Under the pieces are notes generated by a model. The model searched no databases, was not told where the DNA came from, and was given only the letters and a program-made list of their open reading frames with translations. A stretch of 64,000 nucleotides of DNA. Source: Fidelibacterota bacterium. GTDB taxonomy: Bacteria > Fidelibacterota > UBA8477 > JABMPR01. Each line of letters starts with the position of its first letter. Position 1 is the first letter of the stretch. Below are positions 8,202-57,286 of this stretch, one piece after another. Position numbers and translations under genes: made by a program. The stretch spans positions 4,405 to 68,404 of the forward strand of contig JABMOS010000019.1 in NCBI GenBank assembly GCA_013203185.1, given 5' to 3'.

Positions 8202-8202
8202 C

Positions 8203-10038: not shown

Positions 10039-10080
10039 GCCCCTAAATCCATACCCACTTCCCACCCCAATTGAGGTAAT

Positions 10081-12024
10081 ATGAAAACTTTTATTGCACC
10101 ATCGCTTCTTGTCCTTTTCTTCATTGAGTTGCTTATCTCCTGCTCAGGCTCCAGCTTCAATTCTGATATCTGGGATAAGCATCCCTCAGAAAATTTTAAA
10201 CGGACCCAATCACCCTTTCCAGATAGCCCGGATGCCGTCGTCATTTTCGATAGAGAGGAAATCAAAGTTGACCCAGTTTATCATGACTTGCTGCACAAGA
10301 GGTATGTTCGTATACAAATATTCAGTGAAGCTGGGAAGGAGCATGCTAACATTGAAATTCCATATTGGTATTCAGATAAGATCTATGATATAAGGGCTCA
10401 AACAATCCTACCTGACGGCAGAAAGATCCAGCTGGATCCTGCTGATATATTTGACAAGGGGGTTGAAACTGGCTGGAGATATAAAACCTTTGCATTACCT
10501 GGTGTGGCGGCAAACTGTATTATTGATTACCAATATAGGGTACGGGACACCAATGCCAATTTTATCGGCCCAAAGTATTTTCAGAGTCAACTTTTTACTG
10601 AATATTCAAAACTGGTTTTGAGCATTCCTGATGAATACACCTATAACATCGCAGCATTGAATGCGCCTGCAGATTATATAGACCCAGAGGGTAAACTTCA
10701 TGCACTTACCCACAATGAGTATGAAAAGATCTATACATGGGAGTATAACAATCTTCACCCCATCAAAGATGTGGAGCACCTCTATAATTTGCCTGACCAA
10801 CTCTTCTCCCTGCATATGCAGATGGCTGTTTCCAGCCATCTGCCAATAGAAAAATCATTTTCGGAGCAATGGAGCAAACTTATTGAAATTTTGGTTGATC
10901 ATTATGACTCTTATCTTGACCCTGGGAATCGACTAAATGACCTTCTGGCAGAGGTTCCCATCTCGGATTCTGCTTCAGGAGTTTCTCCCAAGGATATCTA
11001 CCAATTCGTAAGGGATAATTTCGACCGGGAGCATTATTCTGGTATTATCACGGAGGAATTATCAGATGTGCTCAAGGAAAGGGCTGGAACAAAAGTTGAG
11101 AAGAATTTTTTAACGATTTCCCTATTACGTGTTGCTGGCTTTGAGGCTGACCCAGTTTTCATCAGCAGGCGCTCAAATGGAATCTTAAACGTTGGGTCGC
11201 CTACCCTGGAGAAAATAGATCATGCCCTGGTAAGGGTTAAGGAAAACGACCAATACACATTAATTGATGCCGGAAATGATTACGCCAGCTTCGATTATAT
11301 GCCAGCTGATAATTACTCTGGTATTGGTTTAATTCTAAGCTCGAATCCAGACTCAATTTTTTACCAATTCCCAGTGCGTCCCAAAGCCAGTCGAGAAGAC
11401 ATACTCACAACTGCGACAATTGATGATGACGGTAATCTTATAGGATCATTTGCTGTTCGGGCTACTGGCTTTTTTGCAGCTGAGATGAGGGAATTTTACT
11501 CGCTAACTGCAGAAGATAGCGCAAAGAGAAGTGCCCACTTTGCCAGGCTGATGCCGGAAATTCTGGTGGATAGTATTTCTCACAACACATCTCTAACGGA
11601 TCATGATAAAGCCATGACAACAACGGTCCACTTCCAAATACCTGGATTCTTAGATCTTTCAGGAGACCTCTGCTATGTCCCCACTACATATTACGGCAGG
11701 TTTGAGGCCAATGACTTAACTGCGGAAAAACGTGAACTTCCAGTTCAATTTGATTTCCCCTTTCATGTAAGAGAGACTGTTACAATTAATCTCCCTGCAA
11801 ACTGGGAAATAATAGAACTACCGAAAAATGTGAGTCTGAAAGGGCCGGGTATTGGATTTCAAAAACTATTTATGTCTCAAACAAATGGGTTCCAATTACT
11901 CTGGAGTTCACAGCTTGTAAAACTTCAACACCCCAATTCTAATTATCCAGTTTTGAAAAATTATTTCACCGAAGCTGTTGCCATAGATCAAAACAAGATC
12001 GTGGTGCGCAGGAAAAATCCATAG
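10081..12024 (+). CDS. DUF3857/transglutaminase-like lipoprotein, catalytic Cys replaced (pseudo-enzyme paralogue A-prime)
   Basis: Lipoprotein-type signal (ELLISC). Colinear with 6258..8201 over the full length, e.g. SPDAVVIFD / RYVRIQIFSEAGKE / AQTILPDGRKIQL / FALPGV. Core ERAGTKVEKNFLTISLLRVAGFEADPVFISRR...IDHALVRV...LIDAG has Lys in place of Cys. Confidence 0.65.
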   Translation: MKTFIAPSLLVLFFIELLISCSGSSFNSDIWDKHPSENFKRTQSPFPDSPDAVVIFDREEIKVDPVYHDLLHKRYVRIQIFSEAGKEHANIEIPYWYSDKIYDIRAQTILPDGRKIQLDPADIFDKGVETGWRYKTFALPGVAANCIIDYQYRVRDTNANFIGPKYFQSQLFTEYSKLVLSIPDEYTYNIAALNAPADYIDPEGKLHALTHNEYEKIYTWEYNNLHPIKDVEHLYNLPDQLFSLHMQMAVSSHLPIEKSFSEQWSKLIEILVDHYDSYLDPGNRLNDLLAEVPISDSASGVSPKDIYQFVRDNFDREHYSGIITEELSDVLKERAGTKVEKNFLTISLLRVAGFEADPVFISRRSNGILNVGSPTLEKIDHALVRVKENDQYTLIDAGNDYASFDYMPADNYSGIGLILSSNPDSIFYQFPVRPKASREDILTTATIDDDGNLIGSFAVRATGFFAAEMREFYSLTAEDSAKRSAHFARLMPEILVDSISHNTSLTDHDKAMTTTVHFQIPGFLDLSGDLCYVPTTYYGRFEANDLTAEKRELPVQFDFPFHVRETVTINLPANWEIIELPKNVSLKGPGIGFQKLFMSQTNGFQLLWSSQLVKLQHPNSNYPVLKNYFTEAVAIDQNKIVVRRKNP

Positions 12025-15726: not shown

Positions 15727-17109
15727 ATGAAGTATCCACCAGAACCGTTTAGAATTAAAACTGTTGAGGCCATCGCCCGCACCACGGATTGGGAGCGACT
15801 GGCTGTGATACAGGATGCTGGATATAATGTCTTCAATATTCCTGCAGAAAAAATTTATATCGATTTATTGACAGATAGCGGCACCAGTGCCATGAGTGAT
15901 AATCAGTGGGCTGGCATGATGAAGGGTGATGAATCCTACGCTGGCAGTAAAAATTACTTCCATTTTGAGGCGATGATCAACAAGATCTTTGGATTCAAAC
16001 ATGTGATTCCAACCCATCAGGGTCGCGTTGCTGAGAATTTGCTTTTTTCTACAATACTCAAGGATAAGAAGAATCTGGTTATCCCTAATAACAACCATTT
16101 TGATACGACACGCGCCAATGTGGAATACAATGGCGGCAGGGCTGCTGATCTGGTGATTGATATTGCCAAGGACACCCAGATTATTGATGATTTTAAGGGC
16201 AATATTGACCTGGATAAATTAGCCAGGCTTATTGAAGAAGTTGGGGCTGAGCGAATCCCCATTGGCATGCTCACCATTACCAACAATTCTGGCGGTGGTC
16301 AACCCGTTTCCATGGCCAATATCAGAGGAACTTCTGAATTGCTCCACAAACATGGCATTCCTTTTTATATCGATGCCTGTCGTTTTGCCGAAAATGCCTA
16401 TTTCATCAAGACCCGAGAAGCAGGTTATGAGAATAAGAGCATCCTGGAAATCGCCAATGAGATGTTCTCTTATGCTGATGGTTGTACCATGAGCGCCAAG
16501 AAAGATGCGCTGGTAAATATGGGTGGATTTTTCGCAACCAACGATGATGAACTGGCACAACAAATCACCAACCGCCTGATCCTGATTGAGGGGTTCCCCA
16601 CCTATGGTGGTCTGGCTGGTCGCGACCTGGAAGCCATTGCAATTGGTCTGGGAGAAGTTCTCCAGGAGGATTACCTGGCTTATAGAATTTCACAGGTGGA
16701 AGAACTGGGAGATCGACTTATAGACGCAGGTGTCCCAATCTTAAGGCCTACCGGTGGCCATGCAGTCTATCTGGATGCAAAAAACTTTCTACCCCATATC
16801 CCCCAATCTCAATTCCCTGGAATTGCCCTCACAGTTTCACTTTATACCCATGCTGGTATCCGAGCGGTGGAGATTGGCAGTCTCATGTTTGCCCATGAGG
16901 ATCCTGAATCAGGTGAGACCATTTATCCCGATCTAGAATTGGTACGATTGGCTATTCCTCGCAGGGTTTATACCAATAGTCAGATGCAGTATGTGGCAGA
17001 AAATATTATCGAGTTATATGAAGATAGAGAAAACATTAAGGGCTATGAGATCGAATATGAGGCTCAGGTGTTGCGCCACTTTACGGCGCGTTTAAAACCA
17101 CTAGGATAA
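15727..17109 (+). CDS. tnaA: Tryptophanase (beta-eliminating lyase family; tyrosine phenol-lyase not excluded)
   Basis: Near full-length colinearity with TnaA/TPL: YPPEPFRIKTVE, YIDLLTDSGTSAMSD.QWAGMM.GDE.YAGS, PTHQGR.AEN, GGQPVSMAN, PLP-lysine motif SAKKDALVNMGGF, RLAIPRRVYT. The FDTT motif (Asp rather than the Thr of the TPL FTTT motif) favours tryptophanase; this is recalled from memory. Confidence 0.8.
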   Translation: MKYPPEPFRIKTVEAIARTTDWERLAVIQDAGYNVFNIPAEKIYIDLLTDSGTSAMSDNQWAGMMKGDESYAGSKNYFHFEAMINKIFGFKHVIPTHQGRVAENLLFSTILKDKKNLVIPNNNHFDTTRANVEYNGGRAADLVIDIAKDTQIIDDFKGNIDLDKLARLIEEVGAERIPIGMLTITNNSGGGQPVSMANIRGTSELLHKHGIPFYIDACRFAENAYFIKTREAGYENKSILEIANEMFSYADGCTMSAKKDALVNMGGFFATNDDELAQQITNRLILIEGFPTYGGLAGRDLEAIAIGLGEVLQEDYLAYRISQVEELGDRLIDAGVPILRPTGGHAVYLDAKNFLPHIPQSQFPGIALTVSLYTHAGIRAVEIGSLMFAHEDPESGETIYPDLELVRLAIPRRVYTNSQMQYVAENIIELYEDRENIKGYEIEYEAQVLRHFTARLKPLG

Positions 17110-35421: not shown

Positions 35422-37404
35422 ATGGTGAAAATGAAACAAGCTGAAGCATTAAAAAATTACGCAGCCACCCGCAAAGCCATTGGCTATGTGGAGCGGCAAA
35501 AAGCCAAACCAAAAGATTATAAACGTATCGGTTTTAAGTCAGGCTTGGAAGTTCATCAGCAACTCAAGACCAAGAGCAAACTTTTCTGTCGCTGTCCCGC
35601 TGGCATCTACCATTCAGATGATGATTTTGATGCTGAGGTTATCCGTCATATGCGCCCCACCCTGAGTGAATTGGGTGAATATGATGGCACGGCCCTCATG
35701 GAATTCAAGACCCGCAAGAATATTACCTATCGTCTCAACAACAGGAGTGCTTGCACCTATGAAGTAGATGATACTCCCCCTTTCCACATCGATCCGGAAG
35801 CTTTGGAAATTGCCATAGAAATATCACTCCTCTCCAAACTGAATATTGTTGGTGAAGTTCACATCACCCGAAAACAATATCTGGATGGCAGTATCCCAAC
35901 CGGTTTCCAGAGGACAGCAATTCTTGGTGTGGAGGGAGAGATTCAACTTAAAAATAAAAAAGTGGGCCTCATCCAGCTCAGCATAGAAGAAGATTCATGC
36001 CGGGAAATTTCTGATATTGGTCATGAAAGGATTTACAAAACTGATCGTCTCGGTATGCCTCTCATCGAAACTGTCACCCAGCCAGAGCTGGAAACACCAG
36101 ATGAGCTGGCTGAAGCAGCGGAATACATCCGCTTTTTAAACCGCAGTACCGATAAAGTTCGTACGGGTATGGGGGCAGGTCGGGAAGATGTCAATGTGAG
36201 TTGTGCCGGTGGCAGCAGGGTCGAAATAAAGGGAGTCGCCCACAACAAATGGATCCCTGAACTTTCCCATAATGAAGCATTCCGTCAATGGGCACTCCTG
36301 AACATAAAGAGGCTCATCCATGATCGGGGTATCCAACAAAATAAATGGGTAATGAGCCACAAAGAGATCGATTATTCAATGCCAGAACTTTTGGCATCTC
36401 CTCTGAGAGAGAAACTGAATCGGAGAATGAAAGTCATCGCCATTAATCTTCCGAAACTTAAAGGAATTCTCTCTCACTTTATGCAACCTGGCCACAGTTT
36501 TGCTCATGAGATTAGTCATCGCTTGAAGGTAATCGCCTGTATCGAGCGTCCCAATATGACCCATTCTGAAAGCTTTAATCCACTTCTTAGTGATGAGGAG
36601 CTGGGCAAAATTTCAAAATGGCTGGGAGCTAAGAAAGACGATGCTCAGATTGTGCTCTGGGGACCCGCTGAGGACATTCCCACTGCCCTGGAAACCGTGG
36701 AAGAACGAATCCGTATGGCCTTTGAGGGCGTTCCTGAGGAAACCCGGAAATCCCTGCCTGATGGTACAACCATCTTTGAAAGAGTTCTCCCTGGAAGTGA
36801 TCGCATGTATCCCGACACAGATTCTGCACCCATTCCTCTCACTGTAGAATTCATTGATAAGCTGGGTAAAAATTTACCCCCAGATATTGCTGATCGTTAT
36901 GCGCAGATGAAGGCGTGGGGCATTCCATCGGATACCTGGAAATATCTCCTGAGTAAAAATATGGTCCCCCTCATCGAGAAAATTTGTGAGGGGCATGGCT
37001 ATACCCACAAATTCATTGGATCCTTCCTGGGACATACTTTCAAAAACATTGAGGGAAAACGCGAATTGCACAAAAACTTCTTCTATGAAAAAACCTATGA
37101 GCTGTTTCGCTATATCAAGGAGAAGAAGCTGGAGCCAGGTATTGCTAAGTATATGATGCCAGTGATATATGAATTTCCTGACATGCAGTTTAGCTCAGTA
37201 CTTACCTCTATCCAATTCAGACAGCGCAGTATGACAGACATTATAACTCCGATAAAATTTTTGCATGAAAAGTATCTAGAGAATACACCAGAAGTGAAGC
37301 CAGGAGATGATATAAACTGGCTTATGGGTCAGGTGCATCATCAAGCTATCGGAAATGTGGAAATGGCTGATCTGAGACAAAAGATCGGGACAATAATTAA
37401 ATGA
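35422..37404 (+). CDS. gatE: Glutamyl-tRNA(Gln) amidotransferase subunit E (archaeal-type GatE)
   Basis: Blocks colinear with archaeal GatE as I recall it: GFKSGLEVHQQLKTKSKLFCRCP, RHMRPTLSELGEYD, EVDDTPPFHIDPEALEIAIEISLL, TRKQYLDGSIPTGFQRT, LSIEEDSCRE, YKTDRLGMPLIETVT, GREDVNVS..GGSRVEIKGV, GVPEETRKSLPDGTTIFERVLPGSDRMYPDTD. At 660 aa it is longer than GatB. Confidence 0.8.
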   Translation: MVKMKQAEALKNYAATRKAIGYVERQKAKPKDYKRIGFKSGLEVHQQLKTKSKLFCRCPAGIYHSDDDFDAEVIRHMRPTLSELGEYDGTALMEFKTRKNITYRLNNRSACTYEVDDTPPFHIDPEALEIAIEISLLSKLNIVGEVHITRKQYLDGSIPTGFQRTAILGVEGEIQLKNKKVGLIQLSIEEDSCREISDIGHERIYKTDRLGMPLIETVTQPELETPDELAEAAEYIRFLNRSTDKVRTGMGAGREDVNVSCAGGSRVEIKGVAHNKWIPELSHNEAFRQWALLNIKRLIHDRGIQQNKWVMSHKEIDYSMPELLASPLREKLNRRMKVIAINLPKLKGILSHFMQPGHSFAHEISHRLKVIACIERPNMTHSESFNPLLSDEELGKISKWLGAKKDDAQIVLWGPAEDIPTALETVEERIRMAFEGVPEETRKSLPDGTTIFERVLPGSDRMYPDTDSAPIPLTVEFIDKLGKNLPPDIADRYAQMKAWGIPSDTWKYLLSKNMVPLIEKICEGHGYTHKFIGSFLGHTFKNIEGKRELHKNFFYEKTYELFRYIKEKKLEPGIAKYMMPVIYEFPDMQFSSVLTSIQFRQRSMTDIITPIKFLHEKYLENTPEVKPGDDINWLMGQVHHQAIGNVEMADLRQKIGTIIK

Positions 37405-37527
37405 TATCCAGATCAACTGCAAAGGGCGCGGAGCACGCCAAGAAAGTTGTGTATAAAACCTTTGCGCTCTTCGCGAACGCTGCGGTAAAAGAGTTTTTAA
37501 TATCGAATTTGAGAGAGAAATGATTCT

Positions 37528-38913
37528 ATGAGTGATGATATTTTTCAGGGGTATAAAGGGGATGCTCTGGCGACTCTGCAGAAATTCAGTGTTCGTGTCT
37601 GGGGTCTGGTTGAAATCCATACCACCCGAGGCACTTTTGATGGAACCGTGCTCCCCCGCTCTGAAAATGATGATGATCAGCATATCGTATTGAAAATCCA
37701 AACGGGCTACAACATTGGTATCGATATTGTGACCATTGAGAAAATGGTTGAAACAGGCTACCAGAAAGCCAATTATAAAATTCCCGAAAAAGCCTTCCCC
37801 TACTCAGATGATAAACCCAATGTGAAACTTTTTGGCACAGGCGGGACCATAGCCTCACGTCTGGACTATCGAACCGGTGCTGTTATCCCAGCCTTTTCTC
37901 CAGGTGAATTATATGGTGCTGTTCCCGAGTTGGCGGATATCTGTAATATCGACACAGAAAAACTATTTGCTGTTTTCAGTGAAAATATGGGTCCTGATCA
38001 GTATATGATTCTGGCAGAAAGCATTGGCAAGGAAATCGCCAACGGCACAGATGGTATTGTCATCGGTCACGGAACCGATACCCTCCACCACACAGCAGCT
38101 GCACTTTCCTTTATGGTCCAGGATTCACCCATCCCAATTATTCTTGTAGGATCGCAACGCTCATCGGATCGACCTTCCTCAGATGCAGCTCTCAATTTGA
38201 TACACGCATCCTATGCAGCCGGGCATGGCGATATTGCAGAAACCCTGGTGTGTATGTTCGGTCCTACTTCAGATGAATATGGCTTCCTCCATCGCGGAAC
38301 CCGAGTCAGAAAAATGCATAGTTCTTATCGCTCGACCTTTCGCACCATTGGCGATACACCGGCTGCCACCGTCACCCGCCAGGGTATCAAGATGATTAAA
38401 ACGGAATACAATCACCGCCGCAAAGACAAGACAGTAAAAATTATTCCCACCTTCAATGAGAAGGTTACCATGCTCTACTATTATCCACACATGAAAGGTG
38501 ATATTGTCGATGCATTGGTAGACGCTGGGTATAAGGGAATTGTGATTGTGGGAACAGGTCTAGGCCATGTTAACCGGGAGCTTTATCCTGCTCTGGAGAG
38601 AGCCAGAGACAAGGGCGTCTCAGTCTTTATGACCCTTCAGACTATCTGGGGTTATGCTCACATGTTCGTCTATGATACGGGTCGGGACATGATGGCCCTT
38701 GGTGTGACACCCCTGGGGAACATGTTGCCTGAGGTCGCCTGGGTCAAACTGGGGTGGGCATTGGGCCAAACAGAGGATCCCATCAAAATCAAAGAAATCA
38801 TGCTCACACCTATCAATGATGATATTACTGAAAGAGAGCCCTATAATGGCTATCTTGTTTATCAGGGTGGTGTGCCTGAGGTTGAAAATTTTGTCCGTAA
38901 ATTCAGGAAATAG
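37528..38913 (+). CDS. gatD: Glutamyl-tRNA(Gln) amidotransferase subunit D (archaeal-type GatD; asparaginase-like)
   Basis: GatD-specific N-terminal domain (GTFDGTVLPRSENDDDQHIVLKIQTGYNIGIDI). Asparaginase motifs FGTGGTIASRLDYRTGAV and GHGTDTLHHTAAALSF, GSQRSSDRPSSDA. 461 aa; adjacent to gatE. Confidence 0.8.
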   Translation: MSDDIFQGYKGDALATLQKFSVRVWGLVEIHTTRGTFDGTVLPRSENDDDQHIVLKIQTGYNIGIDIVTIEKMVETGYQKANYKIPEKAFPYSDDKPNVKLFGTGGTIASRLDYRTGAVIPAFSPGELYGAVPELADICNIDTEKLFAVFSENMGPDQYMILAESIGKEIANGTDGIVIGHGTDTLHHTAAALSFMVQDSPIPIILVGSQRSSDRPSSDAALNLIHASYAAGHGDIAETLVCMFGPTSDEYGFLHRGTRVRKMHSSYRSTFRTIGDTPAATVTRQGIKMIKTEYNHRRKDKTVKIIPTFNEKVTMLYYYPHMKGDIVDALVDAGYKGIVIVGTGLGHVNRELYPALERARDKGVSVFMTLQTIWGYAHMFVYDTGRDMMALGVTPLGNMLPEVAWVKLGWALGQTEDPIKIKEIMLTPINDDITEREPYNGYLVYQGGVPEVENFVRKFRK

Positions 38914-39061
38914 CCAGTGCATATTTGTCTATTAACCCTTCGAGGGCCTCCAGTCTACGCTTTTCAGCTTCGACTTGGCTGGCAGGGAGACAAACTTTTT
39001 ACCCTGCGTCATGCTGAGGTTCTCGAAGCATGAGATTACCATTAATGAAATTATCAAGAAT

Positions 39062-40162
39062 ATGAACATACCAGACCGATCAGAATATCTCAAGGGACTT
39101 GCCCAAACAGGCCAGAAAATCATGGGTGTGTTACCTGCCCTCTATCCCAGAGAGCTACTCTGGGCTTTCGATATTCATGCAGCTGAAATTTGGGATCCAC
39201 CAGGAGAAATACTCCACGCCAATGCCCATTTGCAGACGACTATCTGCCCCGTCGTAAAAAAAAGTCTAGAATTTATCCTCAAGGAACCGCAGACCATTAA
39301 TGCAGGGTACCTCTTCCCCCATACTTGTGACTCCCTTCAAAACCTGGGCACTCAGGTCAAAGACCTTATCGGCGTTTCCCTCCCTATCTACACATTTTAC
39401 AATCCCAAAGGCCGCTTTAACAACACGACGATAAAATATTACCAGGATATCCTCATAAATTTCCAATCTATACTGGAAGCAAGCCATGGACCCCTAGAAC
39501 CAGAGAAACTGAAGGCTGCATGTGTTCTGAGTCATAAAATCGATACCTACCTCATGGTAATCCAACAGGCCCGTATGACAGATCACCTCTCTTTGAGTAA
39601 CCATGAGTATTTCACTCTCATGCGAGCTCAGGAGTACCTGCTCCCTCAAGACTATTTGAGTTTACTTGAACAGGTGAATATTCTCGAGAAACCTGCTGAA
39701 TTTTCAAGAGCAAGACTGATGGTATCGGGAATCTTACCACCACTGCCAGAAATTTTGGTGTTTCTTGATGAATTAGGCGTGAGTATCGTAGCAGATGATT
39801 TACTGGCTGTTAGTCGACGCATTCCAAAATTTGCCATGGATCCCCCTGGTTCACCTCTGGACTATTTGACAGATCGCTTCTTTGTTTTGCCACCCTGCTC
39901 TACCCGTGGGGGAGATCTTGATGAGAGAGTACATTACCTGAGTAATCGTTTGAAAGAGAGTAAAGCTCATGGTCTGCTATTCGACATGGTAAAATTCTGC
40001 GAACCTGAATTGTTTGATCATCGTCTCCTGGTGAAAACCTTTCGAGAACGAAAAACCCCTGTCTTAACCCTGGAAACTGAGCTGGAGGACCACATCTCTG
40101 GTCAGGATAAAACGCGAATAGAAGCATTTACTGAGCGTCTCTTTGAGATAGTTTCAACATGA
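39062..40162 (+). CDS. 2-hydroxyacyl-CoA dehydratase / benzoyl-CoA reductase family subunit (BcrC/BadD/HgdB family)
   Basis: Family-typical pattern (GVLPALYPRELLWAFDIH, HTCDSLQNL, PPCSTRGG, DMVKFCEPELFD). Start moved to 39062 because the 38975 extension runs through an intergenic hairpin/REP-like motif. The stop overlaps the next gene (ATGA). Confidence 0.7.
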   Translation: MNIPDRSEYLKGLAQTGQKIMGVLPALYPRELLWAFDIHAAEIWDPPGEILHANAHLQTTICPVVKKSLEFILKEPQTINAGYLFPHTCDSLQNLGTQVKDLIGVSLPIYTFYNPKGRFNNTTIKYYQDILINFQSILEASHGPLEPEKLKAACVLSHKIDTYLMVIQQARMTDHLSLSNHEYFTLMRAQEYLLPQDYLSLLEQVNILEKPAEFSRARLMVSGILPPLPEILVFLDELGVSIVADDLLAVSRRIPKFAMDPPGSPLDYLTDRFFVLPPCSTRGGDLDERVHYLSNRLKESKAHGLLFDMVKFCEPELFDHRLLVKTFRERKTPVLTLETELEDHISGQDKTRIEAFTERLFEIVST

Positions 40163-41481
40163 GTATCAGAGCAGAATTAAAATATAAAATCATGAAAGAT
40201 TATGGTGCTCCGGTCCTCATGGCATTTCAGAATGTCAGGAGGCGGAAACCCCGTCCCACCCCAGCGGCATTTGGATCACCTTTGGATTCAAATCAACGTT
40301 TAAAAGAAATTCTCAGTCGTCATTACTTTCTCTCCAGGTATGCACCTGGTGTCAAAAAAGTAGCCTGGGTAACCAGTGGCGCTCCAGTGGAACTCCTGCG
40401 AGCCTTTGATTTCTATACCATATATCCTGAAAACCATTCGGCTCTGGTGGGAGCCAAAAAACAGGGTGCTGACTACTGTGGAATTGCCGAAGGAGATGGT
40501 TTTAGCCAGGATTTATGTTCCTATGCCCGTATCGATCTGGGACATATGCTGTCCGGGAAAACGCCGGCTGGAAAGCTTCCCAAACCAGACCTGCTGTTTT
40601 GCTCAAACAACATCTGTCAAACCGTCCTGTATTGGTACAAAGCCATTGCTCATGAACTTGATATTCCTCTGATCCATTTTGATGCTCCCTTTGTTACCAC
40701 GGAGCAGACTGAAGCTGATATTAATTATATGGCTCAGCAACTACAGGATATGATCCCTATCCTTGAGCGGGTATCAGGACGGGTATTTTATCTGAATATT
40801 TTTGAAGAAATCCTAGAGCGCTCCATGGAGACTTCAAAGACCTGGGGTGCCATCCTAGATGCCATGAAGGCTCAACCTGCGCCCATGACTATCTTTGATG
40901 CCTTTGGTCATCTTGCGCCCATCGTTTCCCTCCGTGGACTGCCCGTTGCCCAGGATTACTATCATATATTGATGGATGAGATCAATACGCGAGTCACTCA
41001 GGGAATTGGGGCCATCAGTGATGAGCGCTACCGCTTGATCTGGGACAATATTGCCATCTGGTACAAGGTTCGATTTTTGGCTACCTTTTTTGCTGAGAGA
41101 AAAATGAATTTTGTCACCGCCACCTATACCAATGCCTGGGCTGAGACAACAGGATATCTTGATGTAAAAGATCCCTGGAGGTCAATGGCTAAAACCTATG
41201 GACAAATCATTCTGAATAACAATTTAAAGCATCGTTTGGATTTGATGAAAGGAATGATCAAAACCTATGCAGTAGATGGAATGGTCATGCATTCAACCCG
41301 AAGCTGTAAACCCTATTCTGTGGGTCAATTTGATTTACGCAAAGCCATCACGGCTGACCTCGATCTGCCTGCAGTTATTCTGGATGCTGACATCGCTGAC
41401 GAAAGGGTCTGGTCAGAGCAGCAGATTCAAACTCGCCTGGAAGCCTTTTGTGAAACCCTGGAAGGATCAAAATATGGCTGA
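40159..41481 (+). CDS. 2-hydroxyacyl-CoA dehydratase family subunit (HgdA-like partner subunit)
   Basis: VAWVTSGAPVELLRAFDFYTIYPENH, DLCSYARIDLG, SNNICQTV, VMHSTRSCKPYSVGQ are conserved Cys-containing blocks of the HgdA/HgdB family. Translationally coupled on both sides. Confidence 0.7.
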   Translation: MSIRAELKYKIMKDYGAPVLMAFQNVRRRKPRPTPAAFGSPLDSNQRLKEILSRHYFLSRYAPGVKKVAWVTSGAPVELLRAFDFYTIYPENHSALVGAKKQGADYCGIAEGDGFSQDLCSYARIDLGHMLSGKTPAGKLPKPDLLFCSNNICQTVLYWYKAIAHELDIPLIHFDAPFVTTEQTEADINYMAQQLQDMIPILERVSGRVFYLNIFEEILERSMETSKTWGAILDAMKAQPAPMTIFDAFGHLAPIVSLRGLPVAQDYYHILMDEINTRVTQGIGAISDERYRLIWDNIAIWYKVRFLATFFAERKMNFVTATYTNAWAETTGYLDVKDPWRSMAKTYGQIILNNNLKHRLDLMKGMIKTYAVDGMVMHSTRSCKPYSVGQFDLRKAITADLDLPAVILDADIADERVWSEQQIQTRLEAFCETLEGSKYG

Positions 41482-42283
41482 TCTGTATTTCTCTGGCGTG
41501 GATGTAGGTTCACTCAGTACTGATGTTTCCATCATTGATCATGGAGGGAAGGTGCTTTCTGAAATTGTCATCCCCACAGGTGTCAACGGTTCTGAAGCAG
41601 CTGAACAAGCATTTAACGCTGCCCTGAAACTAGCCGATCTCACCCGGGATAGCATCACAGGCATCACCGCCACGGGCTATGGACGCGCTTCTGTGGCTTT
41701 TGCCACTGGGAAAACGACTGAAATCAGTTGCCATGGTGTTGGTGCCCATCACCTGTTCCCAAAGACAGGCACCGTAATCGATATTGGCGGGCAGGACAGT
41801 AAGGTGATTCAAATTGACAGGCAGGGTCGCATGCTTGATTTTACCATGAACGATAAGTGTGCCGCTGGAACAGGTCGTTTTCTCGAGGTCATGGCCAACC
41901 GCCTGGATCTTAATCTGGATGAATTGAGTAGTCCTCTAAATATTGAAGGAGATTCCGCCCCTATCAGTAGCACTTGTACTGTTTTTGCTGAGAGTGAGGT
42001 CATCTCCTTGCTGGCCAAAAACACCCCGCGCAAAGAAATTGTACATGGTCTGCAACGTTCAATCGTAAACCGGATCTGGAGTATGGTCACCTCAATTGGT
42101 ATTGAAGGCGAAGTGACCTTGACTGGAGGGGTTGCCCATAATAAGGGTCTGGTAGCACTGTTGGAGGAGAAACTGGGCCTTACTTTAAATATTCCAGAAA
42201 ACCCACAGACTGTGGGTGCCCTGGGCGGTGCTCATATAGCCCGTAGAACTTATCAAAACAGTCTGGAAGCAGATTCAATTTAA
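41474..42283 (+). CDS. ATP-dependent [4Fe-4S] activase of the BcrAD/BadFG/HgdC family
   Basis: Start MADLYFSGVDVGSLSTD (ASKHA phosphate-1 motif) at 41474, overlapping the upstream stop (ATGGCTGA). DIGGQDSKVI, cluster-ligand blocks DKCAAGTGRFLE and STCTVFAESEVISL, GGVAHNKGLV. The 41276 ORF start is an out-of-context upstream extension. Confidence 0.85.
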   Translation: MADLYFSGVDVGSLSTDVSIIDHGGKVLSEIVIPTGVNGSEAAEQAFNAALKLADLTRDSITGITATGYGRASVAFATGKTTEISCHGVGAHHLFPKTGTVIDIGGQDSKVIQIDRQGRMLDFTMNDKCAAGTGRFLEVMANRLDLNLDELSSPLNIEGDSAPISSTCTVFAESEVISLLAKNTPRKEIVHGLQRSIVNRIWSMVTSIGIEGEVTLTGGVAHNKGLVALLEEKLGLTLNIPENPQTVGALGGAHIARRTYQNSLEADSI

Positions 42284-51863: not shown

Positions 51864-53138
51864 ATGACAATTTCAGGGGAAAATCAGGATTTAAGAGGGC
51901 TGTTTATTGACAGGTACAATAGGGTTCGAGGATTTACCGAGCAACTATGTGAGCCCCTGGAGAAGGAAGATTATGTCATCCAATCCATGCCTGATGTAAG
52001 CCCAACACGCTGGCACCTGGCCCATACCAGCTGGTTTTTTGAAACCTTTATACTCAAACCAGAACTCAAGAATTATAAGACCCCGAACGAGCTCTACAAT
52101 TATCTCTTCAACTCCTACTATAATGCAGTTGGTCAACAGTTCCCACGGCCTCAAAGAGGACTCCTGAGCCGTCCAACCGTTAAGGAAGTTTTTGCCTATC
52201 GTCATCATGTCGATGAGGAAATGCTTCGCCTTTTTGAGACGCTAGATGAACACAAAATATCGGCGCTTGAATCAATTCTTATTTTAGGTTTAAACCATGA
52301 GCAGCAGCACCAGGAACTCATGCTCACTGATATCAAGCATGTCTTTTTTAAAAATCCGCTTTACCCGTCCTACTCTCAAATTGTTCAGGTAAATGGGTCA
52401 CACAGCTCCGAAGAATTACAGTGGTCATCTTTCCCAGGCGCGCGGGTTCAACATGGATTCTCAGGAGGCAGCTTCAGTTTTGACAATGAAACACCCCGAC
52501 ATGATGTTCTCATTCAACCTTTTGAATTAGGCAATCGGCTTGTGACCAACCGCGAGTATCTGTCGTTCATGGGAGATGGCGGATATAGTCAGGCAGCTCT
52601 CTGGCTTTCTGATGGGTGGGCATTGATCAATAAAGACAACTGGAAAGCCCCCTTATATTGGGTTAAAAATGATGAAAATTGGTTTGAGTTTACCCTTGGC
52701 GGTCTCTCTCCGCTTCATCTTGACAACCCCGTCGCTCATATCAGTTATTATGAAGCTGATGCTTTTGCAAACTGGAGTGGGGCGCGACTACCCAGCGAAC
52801 ATGAGTGGGAATGCGCTGCACAAAATATCCAAATCCAGGGCAACTTTGTTCAGAGCCAATTATTTCAGCCTGCGCCATCAGATTCACCCACCAAATTAAG
52901 TCAAATGTTTGGGGATGTCTGGGAATGGACCCGCAGTCCCTACTCTCCCTATCCTGGATTTAAATCTGCCAGTGGTGCTGTCGGTGAATACAATGGGAAA
53001 TTCATGTCCAACCAAATGGTATTGCGGGGTGGCTCCTGCGTTAGCAGCTGTGACCATTTGCGACACACGTACCGTAACTTCTTTTATCCCCACTCACGCT
53101 GGCAGTTTATGGGCATTCGCCTAGCCAGGGATGTATAG
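51864..53138 (+). CDS. egtB: Ergothioneine biosynthesis sulfoxide synthase EgtB (DinB-like plus FGE-sulfatase-like domains)
   Basis: DinB-type metal site blocks SPTRWHLAHTSWFFETF and LNHEQQHQELMLTDIKH. FGE-like C-terminal domain (VTNREYLSFM, YYEADAFANWSGARLPSEHEWE, GDVWEWTRSPYSPYPGF, VLRGGSCVS). At 424 aa it lacks the extra methyltransferase domain of OvoA. Confidence 0.85.
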   Translation: MTISGENQDLRGLFIDRYNRVRGFTEQLCEPLEKEDYVIQSMPDVSPTRWHLAHTSWFFETFILKPELKNYKTPNELYNYLFNSYYNAVGQQFPRPQRGLLSRPTVKEVFAYRHHVDEEMLRLFETLDEHKISALESILILGLNHEQQHQELMLTDIKHVFFKNPLYPSYSQIVQVNGSHSSEELQWSSFPGARVQHGFSGGSFSFDNETPRHDVLIQPFELGNRLVTNREYLSFMGDGGYSQAALWLSDGWALINKDNWKAPLYWVKNDENWFEFTLGGLSPLHLDNPVAHISYYEADAFANWSGARLPSEHEWECAAQNIQIQGNFVQSQLFQPAPSDSPTKLSQMFGDVWEWTRSPYSPYPGFKSASGAVGEYNGKFMSNQMVLRGGSCVSSCDHLRHTYRNFFYPHSRWQFMGIRLARDV

Positions 53139-53147
53139 GACCTCCTT

Positions 53148-53993
53148 ATGACTTCACCGAAAACGCCCTGGAAGCAACTGCTACCCCTCAATGACAATCG
53201 ACTATTAGAGGCCCGAGGACAACTCCACCAGGCTGTTCAACTCCTGACTGCTGTGAATATTTCTTTTGTTGAGCACAAGGCTGATGATAGCCATACAGCA
53301 CTTCTGTGGGATTCTGACTCCCTGACTTTTTTGAGTCAACCCTTTGGACCTGGAAATAATTTTCAGATCGGCTTACGTCCGGAGGATTTAGCGTGCCTTG
53401 TCTTTCAAAATAATGAGATGTTATTAAATCTGAGATTGAATGGAACAACGCTGGAACAGGTTGCTTCAGATTTACAGTTCTTTCTGGAAGACCACGGCCT
53501 CACCAGGAATGTCTTTACCATGGAGAGACATTTTGAATTGCCAGCCTATCCAGATCGCTGGGCCAGTCCCTTCGATACATCGGATCAGGCTGCATTTGAT
53601 GTGCTTTCTAATGCCTATGCCAACGCATATCCAATGATCAATGAAATTGCCCACAAAGATAGCAGGGCTAGCACTCTGTTAACATGGCCCCATCATTTTG
53701 ACATGGCTGTTTTAATGACTCCCAGCGAGGGGAAATCCATCGGTGTGGGTATGTCACCTGGAGATGCCAGCTATACGAAACCCTACTACTATGTAAATAC
53801 TTGGCCTTACCCATCTGATGATCAAGTGAATGATAGACCTCTCACCTTTGGTAAGTGGCACACCGAAGACTGGAAGGGCATGGTCTTAACTCTGGATCAA
53901 ATCGATAATGCGAAAAAACCCGAAGCGCAAAAATCAATAGTGGAAACATTTCTAAAGGACTCCCTACACCACGCAACAGAGATTACTGAGTAA
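53148..53993 (+). CDS. Hypothetical protein inside the egt operon (possibly DUF5996-like, unverified)
   Basis: No signal peptide and no motif I can assign with confidence. Weak resemblance to my recollection of DUF5996 (WPHHFDMAVL, KPYYYVNTWPYP). 9 nt after egtB and 13 nt before the ABC ATPase. Confidence 0.5.
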   Translation: MTSPKTPWKQLLPLNDNRLLEARGQLHQAVQLLTAVNISFVEHKADDSHTALLWDSDSLTFLSQPFGPGNNFQIGLRPEDLACLVFQNNEMLLNLRLNGTTLEQVASDLQFFLEDHGLTRNVFTMERHFELPAYPDRWASPFDTSDQAAFDVLSNAYANAYPMINEIAHKDSRASTLLTWPHHFDMAVLMTPSEGKSIGVGMSPGDASYTKPYYYVNTWPYPSDDQVNDRPLTFGKWHTEDWKGMVLTLDQIDNAKKPEAQKSIVETFLKDSLHHATEITE

Positions 53994-54006
53994 GCCGCCA
54001 TATCGT

Positions 54007-54759
54007 ATGATACAACTTCGGGACATTAGCAAAAGTTTTAACGGGCATGAGGTCATTCATGACCTCTCTCTTGAGATACCTCAAGGCCAGACGGTGGTTC
54101 TCATTGGTCCCAGTGGATGTGGAAAATCTACACTCCTGAGACTCATGATCGGATTGTTATGGCCTGACAAGGGCAATATCTCTCTTTTTCAACAGGACTT
54201 ATCCAAAACCAATGTTGAAAAACTGCGCCAACAAGTAGGTTTTGTACTCCAGGATGGTGGATTGTTCCCCCATTTGACTGCAGTCCAGAACATGCGCCTT
54301 ATGGCAGACTATTTACATCATGATCCAAAGAAAATTGAACATCGTATTGCTGAATTATGTGAATTGACCCATATCTCTTCAGACCTGCTAAAACACTATC
54401 CCACTGAGTTATCAGGAGGTCAGGTTCAACGGATCGCCCTCATGCGTGCTCTCATGCTGGATCCCCAGATATTGTTTTTAGATGAACCATTGGGAGCGCT
54501 GGACCCCCTGAATAGGGTCAGTTTGCAGGAAGAGATGAAGAGTATCTTTAGTCAACTGGGGAAAACTGTGGTCCTGGTGACCCATGATATGGGGGAAGCT
54601 GCCTCGCTTGCTGACTTGATTGTGATAATGAAAGATGGTTATCTGCTTCAATATGATACCCTCTCCAATCTTTCAGCCCAGCCTGCAGATCCCTTTGTTA
54701 CCGAATTTATAAATGCCCAGAGAAAACCCTGGCAGCTCCTTGAGGATCAGATAAAATGA
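54007..54759 (+). CDS. ABC transporter ATP-binding protein, OpuBA/OpuCA (quaternary amine) type without CBS domains
   Basis: Walker A GPSGCGKST, Q-loop, signature LSGGQ, Walker B ILFLDEP, H-loop VTHD. The C-terminal PADPFVTEFI is typical of the betaine/choline family. ATGA overlap with the next gene. Confidence 0.85.
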   Translation: MIQLRDISKSFNGHEVIHDLSLEIPQGQTVVLIGPSGCGKSTLLRLMIGLLWPDKGNISLFQQDLSKTNVEKLRQQVGFVLQDGGLFPHLTAVQNMRLMADYLHHDPKKIEHRIAELCELTHISSDLLKHYPTELSGGQVQRIALMRALMLDPQILFLDEPLGALDPLNRVSLQEEMKSIFSQLGKTVVLVTHDMGEAASLADLIVIMKDGYLLQYDTLSNLSAQPADPFVTEFINAQRKPWQLLEDQIK

Positions 54760-56267
54760 AGCGTCTGGTCACTTTCACTTATCTGCTCTTGAGTATGCTT
54801 TTCGCAGATATTGCACAGGCAGAATCTGCTTCAGAGATTCGAATAGGGTCAAAGAAGTTCACTGAATCAGTGATTTTGAGTGAACTTATCACCCAACACC
54901 TCCAAAACAACAATGTTTCAGCATCACACAAAGATCAACTTGGTGGAACCCGATTGCTCTGGAATGCTCTGGTCCAGGGGGAACTGGATATCTATCCCGA
55001 CTATACAGGCACGATTATATACGAAATACTGCAAGGTAATGAGATTTCATCAGATGCAGATATCAAGGCTGCTCTTGCTCAGTATGGCGTGAGTATGACA
55101 GATCCTTTGGGTTTCAATAATACTTATGCCCTGGGGGTTACACCGCCGACTGCTAGAAAGTTCTCACTCGAAAAGATTAGCGATTTAGAACAACATCCCA
55201 AACTCAAGTTTGGTTTTACCAATGAGTTTATGGATCGTGAGGATGGGTGGCCCGGCCTAAGAAATCATTACCAACTACCCCAAACCGAAGTCCGCGGTTT
55301 AGATCATGACCTGGCATATAAGGGGCTGGAGGCAGGCTCCATTGACCTCATTGATCTCTATTCAACGGATGCTGAAATCGCCTATTATCAATTAAGTGTT
55401 TTGGAAGATGACAAGAGCTACTTCCCTGATTACCGAGCAGTAATACTCTATAGAACTGATCTGCTAGATCGCTCCCCAGGGGTTCAAAACTATTTAGCTC
55501 AGCTAAGTGGAAGTATTTCAGAGACTGAGATGATCCAGATGAATTCTGCCGTCAAATTGGATGGTCACAGTGAGGCTGAAGTAGCACAGAGTTTCTTGAA
55601 TATTAAGTTTAATACGCTCTCCAAAATCAAAGTCTCTACAAGACTTGACCGATTAATCGCAACCACATCAGAGCATTTATTCCTGGTCTGTATTTCTCTG
55701 GGCGCGGCCATTCTGGTAGCCATTCCCCTGGGGATCTGGGGCGCCAGGAATGAAACCCTAGGTCAGATTATTCTTAGTATAGTGGGTATTATACAGACCA
55801 TACCTTCACTGGCATTGCTGGTTTTCATGATCCCTCTCCTGGGAATTGGTGGACCACCTGCACTGGTAGCCTTATTCCTCTATAGCCTGCTTCCTATCGT
55901 ACGAAATACTTTAAGTGGTTTAACGGGACTTCCCCTTGCGGTACAGGAATCAGCTCGAGCCCTTGGTCTACCCCCAGCAGCTCAACTAAGACTAATCGAA
56001 CTCCCCCTGGCTGCTCGTTCGATTCTGGCAGGCATAAAAATATCAGCAGTTATTAATGTCGGTACGGCAACGCTGGGCGCTTTGATTGGCGCAGGTGGAT
56101 ATGGCCAACCTATACTCACCGGAATTAGACTGGACGATACCAGCCTCATTCTCGAAGGTGCAATTCCGGCTGCGGTTCTTGCGCTGCTTGTTCAATGGAG
56201 TTTTGATTTTGCTGAACGCACTTTACTCTCACCTGGATTACAAAGGAAACAGGATTCTGTATCATGA
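54756..56267 (+). CDS. Fused substrate-binding domain (N-terminal) and permease (C-terminal) of an OpuB/OpuC-type quaternary-amine ABC transporter
   Basis: Signal peptide. SBP block IRIGSKKFTESVILSELI...LGGTRLLWNALVQGELDIYPDYTGTI. Then a 5-6 TM permease with IPSLALLVFMIPLLGIGGPPALVALFLYSLLPIVRNT and the EAA-like ESARALG. ATGA overlap with egtD. Confidence 0.8.
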   Translation: MKRLVTFTYLLLSMLFADIAQAESASEIRIGSKKFTESVILSELITQHLQNNNVSASHKDQLGGTRLLWNALVQGELDIYPDYTGTIIYEILQGNEISSDADIKAALAQYGVSMTDPLGFNNTYALGVTPPTARKFSLEKISDLEQHPKLKFGFTNEFMDREDGWPGLRNHYQLPQTEVRGLDHDLAYKGLEAGSIDLIDLYSTDAEIAYYQLSVLEDDKSYFPDYRAVILYRTDLLDRSPGVQNYLAQLSGSISETEMIQMNSAVKLDGHSEAEVAQSFLNIKFNTLSKIKVSTRLDRLIATTSEHLFLVCISLGAAILVAIPLGIWGARNETLGQIILSIVGIIQTIPSLALLVFMIPLLGIGGPPALVALFLYSLLPIVRNTLSGLTGLPLAVQESARALGLPPAAQLRLIELPLAARSILAGIKISAVINVGTATLGALIGAGGYGQPILTGIRLDDTSLILEGAIPAAVLALLVQWSFDFAERTLLSPGLQRKQDSVS

Positions 56268-57286
56268 CTGAAACACTTAGTTCACCCCAGATTATCAAGG
56301 CTCAAGATCATATTGAAAACCCGACTATGGCTTTTGCCAAGGACGTACTTACAGGGCTAAACAAATCACCCAAGCGGCTGTCTTCTGTCTATTTCTATGA
56401 TGAACGCGGCTCCCAAATATTTGAAGAAATTTGCGATCTCGAGGAATATTATCTCACACGAAAGGAAACTGAAATTCTTCAGCGTTCTGCAGCAGAAATC
56501 ATTTCAAAACTGCCTCCCAACACCCATCTCGTGGAATTGGGAAGTGGTAGCTCAACAAAAACCAGGATATTGTTGGAAGCAGCCCTGGCAAGCTTTGGCA
56601 CTACTCAATATTCACCCATCGATGTTTCAGCTGAAATCCTGACAGATACCGTGAAAGATCTCAACCAGCGCTATCCAGATCTCCAGTTGGAAGCCATCGC
56701 AGGCCGCTATGAGTTTGGTATGGATTATATCCTTAAAAACAGCACCTCATCCAAATGTATTATGTGGCTAGGTTCCAGTATTGGAAATTTAACCCGAATT
56801 GAAGCAGCACAATTTTTGCGTGAAGTCCGCAAAACCATGGGTGATCAGGACAGCTTGCTCCTGGGAATTGATCTCCGTAAAGGACCTGAAATTCTGGAAC
56901 CAGCATATGATGATGCCCAAGGTGTCACCGCTGACTTCAACCTGAATTTACTTGATCGTATCAACTCTGAGTTGGGTGGTACTTTTAAGCGTAACAACTT
57001 CCACCATCAGGCTGTTTATAATGTCGATGAAGGTCGTATAGAAATGTATCTGGTCAGCGACATCGACCAGGAAACAGAAATCAAAAATATTGGAGCCAAA
57101 ATCTCATTCCATAAGGATGAGAAAATCTTGACTGAATATTCATATAAGTATTCACACTCTGAAATTACGGCTCTCGCAGAAGCCTCAGGCTTTTTTCTGG
57201 AGCAACAATGGTTGGATGATTCCGGCTGGTTTAGTCTGAATTGTTTTAAACCCCAAACTAACGCGGCTGAATTGCGCGCCCTATAA
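56264..57286 (+). CDS. egtD: L-histidine N-alpha-methyltransferase EgtD (hercynine synthase)
   Basis: YFYDERGSQIFEEICDLEEYYLTRKETEIL, LVELGSGSSTKTRILLEA, YSPIDVS, WLGSSIGN, ..TEYSYKY: the canonical EgtD/dimethylhistidine methyltransferase blocks. Confidence 0.85.
   Translation: MTETLSSPQIIKAQDHIENPTMAFAKDVLTGLNKSPKRLSSVYFYDERGSQIFEEICDLEEYYLTRKETEILQRSAAEIISKLPPNTHLVELGSGSSTKTRILLEAALASFGTTQYSPIDVSAEILTDTVKDLNQRYPDLQLEAIAGRYEFGMDYILKNSTSSKCIMWLGSSIGNLTRIEAAQFLREVRKTMGDQDSLLLGIDLRKGPEILEPAYDDAQGVTADFNLNLLDRINSELGGTFKRNNFHHQAVYNVDEGRIEMYLVSDIDQETEIKNIGAKISFHKDEKILTEYSYKYSHSEITALAEASGFFLEQQWLDDSGWFSLNCFKPQTNAAELRAL

Follow-up and report, generated by a model that had tools for sequence, protein, structure and literature searches.

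A gatE-gatD amidotransferase gene pair in a Marinimicrobia genome belongs to a bacterial GatDE clade nested among archaeal sequences

Introduction

How does a gene pair for an amidotransferase regarded as archaeal come to lie in the genome of a diderm bacterium, and what might it do there? The question is raised by a stretch of 64,000 nucleotides from a Fidelibacterota bacterium (GenBank assembly GCA_013203185.1, contig JABMOS010000019.1, positions 4,405 to 68,404 of the forward strand), here called the window, in which adjacent gatE and gatD genes encode the two subunits of GatDE. GatDE has been named an 'archaeal signature protein' (PMC2330236, 2008), has been stated to occur 'exclusively in archaea' (PMC2811023, 2009) or 'only in archaea' (PMC8007984, 2021), and is still given as exclusively archaeal in reviews up to 2022 (PMC9499178). 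A preliminary description of the window started from this premise, which holds for the literature (PMC2811023, PMC8007984, PMC9499178) but not for the databases, where bacterial GatDE is labelled as such. Neither the phrase 'bacterial GatDE' nor a link between GatDE and Marinimicrobia, Bacteroidetes hosts, Aminicenantes, Latescibacteria, KSB1 or Calditrichaeota was found in the open-access PMC and bioRxiv literature; subscription journals may differ.

Judged by sequence, the window's pair is not unique; it is an unexceptional representative of a bacterial GatDE subfamily that is large and monophyletic. The best explanation, which we consider probable, is a functional GatDE-type amidotransferase at work in a bacterium, descended from one old archaeal transfer and remodelled at the elements that face tRNA and glutamyl-tRNA synthetase (GluRS). 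It is built on the family assignment, the catalytic residues and the fold, the conserved operon, purifying selection, native composition and phylogenetic position.

Results

Identity of the gene pair

The gatE gene (35422..37404, + strand) encodes the tRNA-dependent kinase/transamidase subunit of 660 amino acids; GenBank places its start three codons downstream, at 35431, giving a protein of 657 amino acids. The gatD gene (37528..38913, + strand) encodes an asparaginase-type glutaminase subunit of 461 amino acids and is separated from gatE by a spacer of 123 bp (37405..37527, + strand). The open reading frames (ORFs) and the diagnostic motifs quoted in the preliminary description are present, with GLEVHQQL at residue 41, RPTLSELG at 78, TGFQRT at 160 and GVPEETRK at 436 of GatE, and TGGTIAS at residue 104 and HGTDT at 181 of GatD.

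Profile searches, which that description had proposed as a check, agree. GatE scores 460.5 bits against NF003107, narrowly passing the cut-off of 456 over profile positions 4-620 of 630, and 394.1 bits against TIGR00134 (gatE_arch; cut-off 319.55), while every GatB model gives only 41-115 bits with the same ORF and misses its cut-off of at least 314. GatD reaches 484.3 bits against NF003217 (cut-off 310) and 482.6 bits against TIGR02153 (gatD_arch; cut-off 324), and contains the Pfam domains GatD_N (PF18195), Asparaginase (PF00710) and Asparaginase_C (PF17763). As the GatE and GatD equivalog models are passed and those for GatB failed, the observation of a true GatE-GatD pair stands; a GatB protein next to a plain asparaginase is ruled out by the curated cut-offs and by the architecture. 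The best relatives in the PDB are 2D6F_C (1.7e-87) and 1ZQ1_C (9.2e-84) for GatE, and 2D6F_A (3.7e-111) and 1ZQ1 (3.6e-108) for GatD.

The GatD core (residues ~97-434) resembles type I L-asparaginase (AnsA), in that it matches TIGR00519 with 362.9 bits and shares the catalytic motifs. That score is below those of the GatD equivalog models, and GatD differs from the asparaginases further in its GatD_N domain and its genetic and evolutionary coupling to GatE.

The GatE sequence is 100% identical to NQV41020.1 and GatD is identical to NQV41021.1, both from a Candidatus Marinimicrobia (Neomarinimicrobiota) metagenome-assembled genome (MAG) and already named GatE and GatD. Since the databases label these genes correctly, any novelty lies in the literature and the biology and not in annotation.

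The spacer between the genes is shorter elsewhere, being 17 bp in several sister Marinimicrobia, and in deeper bacterial lineages gatE and gatD overlap. No repeat of the 123-bp spacer was found in the DNA compared, its RNA fold (z = -1.53) is not significant, and promoter and terminator scans of the region from 35.1 to 39.2 kb gave nothing above shuffle expectation.

The bacterial setting of the locus

The neighbouring genes are those of a diderm bacterium, as had been described. They encode proteins with type IX secretion system (T9SS) tails, a PorQ-like protein, a TetR, TolC, RND adaptor and RND permease set, and TonB_C and Lgt proteins. The preliminary description had also allowed for an assembly chimera, and an artefact of this kind, in which a chimeric join or an archaeal contaminant fragment ended up in a bacterial bin, is scarcely conceivable. 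GC content is flat across the gatED region, its tetranucleotide distance from the window mean is small (z = 1.24), gatE and gatD, at ranks 30 and 33 of 38, agree more closely than most genes with codon usage elsewhere in the window, and their GC at third codon positions is within 1 standard deviation. The order RND pump, SpeE-like/TPR gene, gatE, gatD and 2-hydroxyacyl-CoA dehydratase genes is repeated at 9-12 Marinimicrobia loci from independent assemblies, a cluster-mate of GatD at 90% identity occurs on 142 contigs, and in other bacteria gatED is set between bacterial genes on closed chromosomes of 4-6 Mb. At the level of sequence evidence, composition, codon usage and recurrent synteny thus rule out chimerism and contamination.

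Spread of GatDE among bacteria

A scan of GTDB (one genome per species) with exact 8-residue patterns taken from the window's GatE found a close relative encoded in at least 137 bacterial species, a lower bound that is skewed towards close relatives. The best 80 of the 137 are 57-91% identical to the window's GatE and carry the labels Neomarinimicrobiota, many families of Bacteroidales and Bacteroidota, Aminicenantes and Chlorobiota; they include two closed chromosomes of ~4 Mb (OY781965.2 and OY764079.1, Bacteroidales). GatDE is therefore not restricted to Archaea, the host and at least 137 GTDB species being bacterial, closed chromosomes included. The view of the window's pair as a special or isolated case is accordingly not supported, GatDE being common in many phyla and already annotated, an outcome that the preliminary description had itself named as refuting.

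Same-strand gatD comes after gatE, at a distance of 5-340 bp, in about 70 of these 80 loci; in the others an inserted gene separates the two, gatD is found at another place, or the contig stops. On the two closed Bacteroidales chromosomes (loci L047 and L048) gatE is followed by a CNNM/CorC transporter gene and a SurA-like peptidyl-prolyl isomerase gene, and no gatD lies within 10 kb. A GH16 protein or an M28 peptidase is encoded between gatE and gatD in loci L045 and L055. As a clue to function, conserved neighbours were uninformative, as only gatE and gatD are kept together across phyla, the rest being housekeeping or envelope genes that differ from lineage to lineage.

Deeper relatives were retrieved by exhaustive search of 1.84 billion protein representatives clustered at 50% identity, of which 602 matched at E <= 1e-30. 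Their identities to the window's GatE fall into three bands, namely a single representative at 62%, a middle band at 42-53% and a lower band at 32-38%. Named members of the middle band are all bacterial (Deltaproteobacteria/Desulfaltia, CSSED10-310, Calditrichia, KSB1, Latescibacteria, Krumholzibacteria, Aminicenantes and a 'Clostridiales' MAG), Desulfobacterota being among the phyla with deeper relatives. Those of the lower band are all archaeal (Heimdall-, Odin- and Parvarchaeota, Thermoprotei, Acidilobaceae and Desulfurococcaceae). In four deep bacterial loci, which include the deepest branch and have Latescibacteria, Calditrichia and a closed 6-Mb genome among them, gatE and gatD are adjacent or overlap, and the genes around them encode SecA, DnaA, sigma-70, PNPase, ThiI, Mur ligases, MraZ, RsmH and Lnt.

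Some labels in these collections call for comment. Loci L003, L013 and L059, labelled Lentisphaeria or Eubacteriales, sit among sequences of the Marinimicrobia/Bacteroidales type and may be mis-binned. Several PLSDB records (CP090106.1, NZ_CP084075.1, CP031304.1 and others) are chromosome-sized, at 2-3.7 Mb, and contain essential genes, for instance gatB or an archaeal gatE; they are apparently chromosomes or chromids filed as plasmids.

Evolutionary origin

A neighbour-joining tree of 133 GatE sequences (435 columns, rooted with four bacterial GatB, 200 bootstraps) supported a single clade of all 47 bacterial-band sequences at 95.5%, falling to 84.5% with the deepest branch added, and recovered the subclade of the window's GatE in 100%. 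Monophyly of archaeal GatE to the exclusion of bacteria was found in 0%. Support for a sister group of the bacterial clade is low, at 19.5% for Heimdall and 40% for an Asgard-containing group. In a GatD tree of 16 bacterial and six archaeal sequences, rooted with E. coli AnsA, the bacteria were monophyletic in 100% of bootstraps and grouped with a Heimdallarchaeota sequence in 93%, and the archaea alone formed a group in 0.2%. Across 65 loci the pairwise identities of GatE and GatD are correlated (r = 0.92, Mantel p <= 0.001), and so the two subunits travelled together.

The nesting of the bacterial clade within archaeal diversity points to one old transfer of the gatE-gatD pair from archaea to bacteria. 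An archaeal origin, one of the possibilities raised in the preliminary description, is in this way supported by outgroup-rooted trees of both subunits with archaeal references. The transfer was probably followed by spread among bacteria, given identities of 76-84% among the GatD proteins of Marinimicrobia, Bacteroidales, Aminicenantes and Chlorobiota and the presence of Aminicenantes in both bacterial subclades; the gatE-gatD unit would have reached the FCB (Fibrobacteres-Chlorobi-Bacteroidetes) group and other, mostly anaerobic or uncultivated, bacterial phyla. The donor was possibly Asgard- or Heimdall-like, a lead and not a result because the trees are distance trees and the archaeal GatD sample is limited.

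A vertical relic is the alternative here. Under the scenario of Sheppard and Soll, as quoted in PMC9499178, GatDE already existed in LUCA (the last universal common ancestor), and a bacterial clade that is old, diverse and monophyletic would fit its loss from most bacteria with no transfer at all. Yet the bacterial sequences nest inside the archaea whether GatB or AnsA serves as the outgroup, with next to no bootstraps for archaeal monophyly in either subunit; the similarity of GatD between bacterial phyla fits later lateral spread, and the distribution is concentrated in the FCB group and a few other phyla. We regard a LUCA-age relic as improbable, and retain the single transfer.

MAGs labelled Aminicenantes fall in both bacterial GatE subclades, L051 and L053 in the FCB-type subclade of the window and P0342 and P0360 in the deep one, which suggests bacterium-to-bacterium transfer, two lineages, or binning errors. 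Gene order is fixed as gatE followed by gatD in bacterial GatDE and varies in the sampled archaea. Among six archaeal loci, the genes are divergent in Heimdall, run from gatD to gatE in Thermoprotei and Parvarchaeota, and in two gatE stands alone; only the Odinarchaeota locus has the bacterial order of overlapping gatE and gatD. The Parvarchaeota/Jingweiarchaeum locus (L097, 3066-7869) has the glutamine synthetase gene glnA directly upstream of gatD, followed by a small ORF and gatE, with AlaRS- and AspRS-like genes a few kb downstream.

Fold and catalytic residues

The AlphaFold2 model of GatE (pLDDT 82.8, pTM 0.80) matched 1zq1_C and 2d6f_D best in Foldseek, with E ~6e-38 and a TM of 0.75, whereas GatB chains gave E ~1e-18. 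It has an alpha/beta insertion at residues ~300-435, and its C-terminus (475-660) is helical, pLDDT being ~90. Coverage of the hidden Markov models, the AlphaFold2 model and Foldseek together support the four-domain architecture of GatE, including the insertion domain resembling that of aspartyl-tRNA synthetase (AspRS) and the YqeY-like tail. The Pfam domains GAD and GatB_Yqey are sub-threshold in the window's GatE, yet are detected in its relatives. The window's subclade has an N-terminal extension of ~30 residues (35422-35511), with residue 2 of the Methanothermobacter thermautotrophicus (Mth) protein aligning to residue 32; residues 4-19, within the extension, are modelled as a confident helix.

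The three Mg2+ ligands of GatE are all conserved in an alignment to 2D6F_C, as His45 (35554..35556, + strand), Glu189 (35986..35988, +) and Glu216 (36067..36069, +), and the His45 column reaches at least 95% conservation across 81 archaeal representatives of GatE. They correspond to His15, Glu157 and Glu184 of the M. thermautotrophicus protein, where all three are essential by mutagenesis (PMC2330236). Conservation of this degree in the archaeal set extends to 69 columns, and the window's GatE keeps 63 of them, the three Mg2+ ligands included.

In GatD, alignment to 2D6F_A and motif position identify the nucleophile Thr107 in TGGTIAS (37846..37848, + strand), Thr183-Asp184 of HGTDT (38074..38079, +) and the triad lysine Lys262 of VRKMHS (38311..38313, +). 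We take T107, T183, D184 and K262 to be the equivalents of T101, T177, D178 and K254 of the Mth enzyme (Mth numbering after Feng et al. 2005). GatD catalysis uses such a threonine nucleophile and also a triad of Thr, Lys and Asp (PMC2330236).

Comparison with Marinimicrobia orthologues gives dN/dS values of 0.035-0.054 (gatE) and 0.018-0.024 (gatD), which are approximate because dS is near saturation. Both genes are under strong purifying selection, with constraint at the level of housekeeping genes.

Remodelled recognition elements of GatE

Two elements of GatE are known to read tRNA, a short basic loop next to the first base pair, where GatB has a 3-10 turn, and a tail motif, Lys-rich in GatB, that has been implicated in tRNA discrimination (PMC2811023). 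In the window's GatE the loop, KVRTGMGAGRED (residues 245-256; 36154..36189, + strand), replaces the GatB 3-10 turn near base pair 1:72. The archaeal consensus is K-V-K-R-G-L-G-T-I-R-Q-D, with the first Arg in 96%, and the window's protein has Thr248 at this Arg site. Thr occupies the site in 88% of the sequences in the window's subclade; over bacterial GatE as a whole the figures are 47% for Thr and 40% for Arg. The bacterial loops retain the GatE-type length, two residues shorter than GatB.

The tail motif, NWLMGQVHHQAIGNVEM (residues 632-648; 37315..37365, + strand), was located by alignment in the YqeY-like domain and is helical in the model with pLDDT ~90. The LRG(K/R)xDG of archaea is kept in deep bacterial lineages and becomes QA(I/L)GN in the window's subclade, QAIGN in the window itself, and it is because of this replacement that Pfam GatB_Yqey misses the window's GatE. 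A third change, found in an alignment of named archaeal and bacterial GatE, affects the AspRS-like insertion domain (VIACIERPNMTHSESFNPL, residues 370-388; 36529..36585, + strand). Throughout the bacterial clade the archaeal HxDELPxYGI is replaced by ...PNxxHSE... plus an insertion of 3-4 residues, and the archaeal D-E columns, at least 95% conserved, are lost in the window's GatE. The archaeal-type recognition elements, loop Arg and tail motif, are thus not present in the window's GatE, while deeper bacterial members partly retain both.

Since bacterial tRNA(Gln) has U1-A72 and not the A1-U72 of archaea, we infer that the changes in loop, tail and insertion are an adaptation to bacterial tRNA(Gln) and bacterial GluRS, although a change of substrate might account for them just as well. 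In archaea, GatDE recognises A1-U72 together with the D-loop of the archaeal tRNA(Gln) and enters a complex with archaeal GluRS (PMC2330236, PMC9499178).

Comparison with known amidotransferases

The window's proteins resemble archaeal GatDE (Mth 2D6F and P. abyssi 1ZQ1) in their predicted two-subunit composition, in the combination of GatD_N with an asparaginase fold bearing the catalytic Thr and triad, and in the cradle, AspRS-like insertion, helical and tail domains, three Mg2+ ligands and short loop of GatE. They differ in coming from a diderm bacterial host, in forming a separate monophyletic clade, being 36-49% identical to archaeal GatE and GatD and 57-96% identical within their subclade, and in the loop Arg to Thr change, the remodelled HxDELPxYGI with its insertion, the QAIGN tail and the N-terminal extension.

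With GatCAB, the enzyme expected in bacteria, they would share three-step transamidation, and they have a paralogous subunit in common with it, GatB having the same cradle and helical/YqeY tail as GatE. GatB differs in its two-residue-longer 3-10 turn, its Lys-rich tail motif and its lack of an insertion domain, and the glutaminase of GatCAB is the amidase-family GatA, whereas GatD belongs to the asparaginase family.

Predicted function

For the substrate and the complex, as for the reason behind the motif changes, a model can be inferred by analogy with the archaeal enzyme. The two subunits would form a heterodimeric enzyme, probably alpha2-beta2, a reading supported by their gene linkage in about 70 of 80 loci and by their correlated evolution (r = 0.92). 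GatE would bind Glu-tRNA(Gln) made by a non-discriminating GluRS and phosphorylate its gamma-carboxyl with ATP and Mg2+ (H45, E189, E216); GatD would hydrolyse Gln or Asn (Thr107 nucleophile, Thr183-Asp184-Lys262 triad); and the ammonia would pass through an intramolecular tunnel to GatE, where Gln-tRNA(Gln) would be formed. Conventional Glu-tRNA(Gln) amidation of this kind is likely the role of the pair, and is preferred because the architecture and catalytic residues are conserved, the insertion domain is retained, deep bacterial members have archaeal-like motifs and purifying selection is strong.

Several points weigh against a re-tuned enzyme derived from a single transfer. All three of the loop at the first base pair, the tail motif and the insertion domain are altered, and this could mean a different substrate in place of re-tuning. 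The A1-U72 and D-loop features that the archaeal enzyme uses are missing from bacterial tRNA(Gln) (PMC2330236, PMC9499178), and some Bacteroidetes are reported to encode GlnRS, AsnRS and GatCAB together, which would make GatDE redundant there (PMC4206432). The trees are neighbour-joining trees only, with six archaeal GatD sequences and, at 19.5% for Heimdall, low support for a sister group of bacterial GatE.

These points lead to an alternative in which the chemistry is unchanged and the job is another one, either amidation of another or additional aminoacyl-tRNA such as Asp-tRNA(Asn), or tRNA-dependent synthesis of amide amino acids in a cell whose translation GlnRS or GatCAB already serves. 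All three GatE recognition elements depart from the archaeal consensus, and GlnRS, AsnRS and an amidotransferase are known to coexist in some bacteria, Bacteroidetes among them (PMC4206432). Against this, the AspRS-like insertion domain is kept, and modelling suggests that it clashes with class II AspRS (PMC2330236). The archaeal-type tail motif, and in many cases the loop Arg as well, persist in deeper bacterial members, so that the ancestral bacterial enzyme looks like a conventional Glu-tRNA(Gln) amidotransferase, and the gene neighbourhood holds no pointer to another pathway. On this evidence another tRNA-linked job appears unlikely.

Recruitment for amidation of something other than tRNA, for example a small molecule or a peptide, is very improbable. 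Homologues of such enzymes are recruitable in general, and 2-hydroxyacyl-CoA dehydratase genes follow the operon in Marinimicrobia. In the window these lie 62 bp past gatD (38975-42283, + strand) and encode HadC/HadB-like dehydratase subunits and an ATP-dependent activase. The synteny of gatED with them is, however, confined to Marinimicrobia (10-12 loci) and not found in other phyla, and being lineage-specific it probably makes the dehydratase genes unrelated to GatDE function; no neighbour is conserved across phyla. Moreover, the whole tRNA-binding architecture of cradle, insertion, helical and tail domains is full length and under strong purifying selection. Amidation of Glu-tRNA(Gln) remains the preferred role.

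No gatC, gatA, gatB or glnS lies within the 64-kb window, and gatA, gatB and glnS were not found in 1.43 Mb of related bacterial DNA, a result that is uninformative as chance alone would have given only ~0.5 hits. Near the operon, neither the window nor 46 loci contained a tRNA(Gln) gene, and an Rfam search of the window gave no match. The amidase encoded beside gatED in locus L059 was considered as a GatA and rejected, as it is a generic PF01425 amidase and 32% identical to GatA.

A more far-reaching proposal would be that GatDE is no archaeal signature, and that after one transfer, possibly from a Heimdall-like Asgard donor, and re-tuning it now provides Gln-tRNA(Gln) as the only or the principal pathway, having taken over from GatCAB or GlnRS across entire lineages. 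These would comprise Marinimicrobia, Bacteroidales, Calditrichota, KSB1, Latescibacterota, Aminicenantia and others. Taken with all its parts, this is a tentative proposal that may well claim too much.

Other features of the window

A stretch at 51864-57286 (+ strand) contains egtB (51864-53138; TIGR03440 577.9 bits, cut-off 360), for ergothioneine biosynthesis, and egtD (56264-57286, + strand; TIGR03438 363.1 bits, cut-off 290.9). Between them lie an unknown ORF, an ABC ATPase gene (54007-54759) and a gene for a fused OsmF-like binding protein and ProW-like permease (54756-56267). The stretch looks like a cluster for ergothioneine biosynthesis plus a betaine-type transporter in a Marinimicrobia genome. 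Three tandem paralogous ORFs of 611-647 amino acids are present at 6258-12024 (+ strand), with DUF3857 in the first and an NCBIfam match in none. A gene of the tryptophanase/tyrosine phenol-lyase family lies at 15727-17109 (+ strand; NF009709, 688 bits).

Discussion

For 25 years GatDE has been seen as exclusive to archaea and co-evolved with their unusual tRNA(Gln), and this view underpins arguments on why archaea never acquired GlnRS and on whether both amidotransferases existed in LUCA (PMC2330236, PMC2811023, PMC9499178). A large and strongly selected bacterial clade would mean that GatDE can function in bacterial translation, or was re-tuned to do so. The phenomenon is moderately surprising to specialists, although the window itself is one case among many.

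Bacterial GatDE offers natural sequence variants at the very elements thought to read tRNA, and makes testable which first base pair and D-loop the enzyme reads, whether it pairs with bacterial GluRS, and whether it has displaced GatCAB or GlnRS. The finding also bears on annotation-based metabolic reconstructions of the abundant ocean Marinimicrobia and of anaerobic Bacteroidales. If GatDE were indeed the sole or main route to Gln-tRNA(Gln) in these lineages, they would represent a natural experiment in the co-evolution of amidotransferase and tRNA identity.

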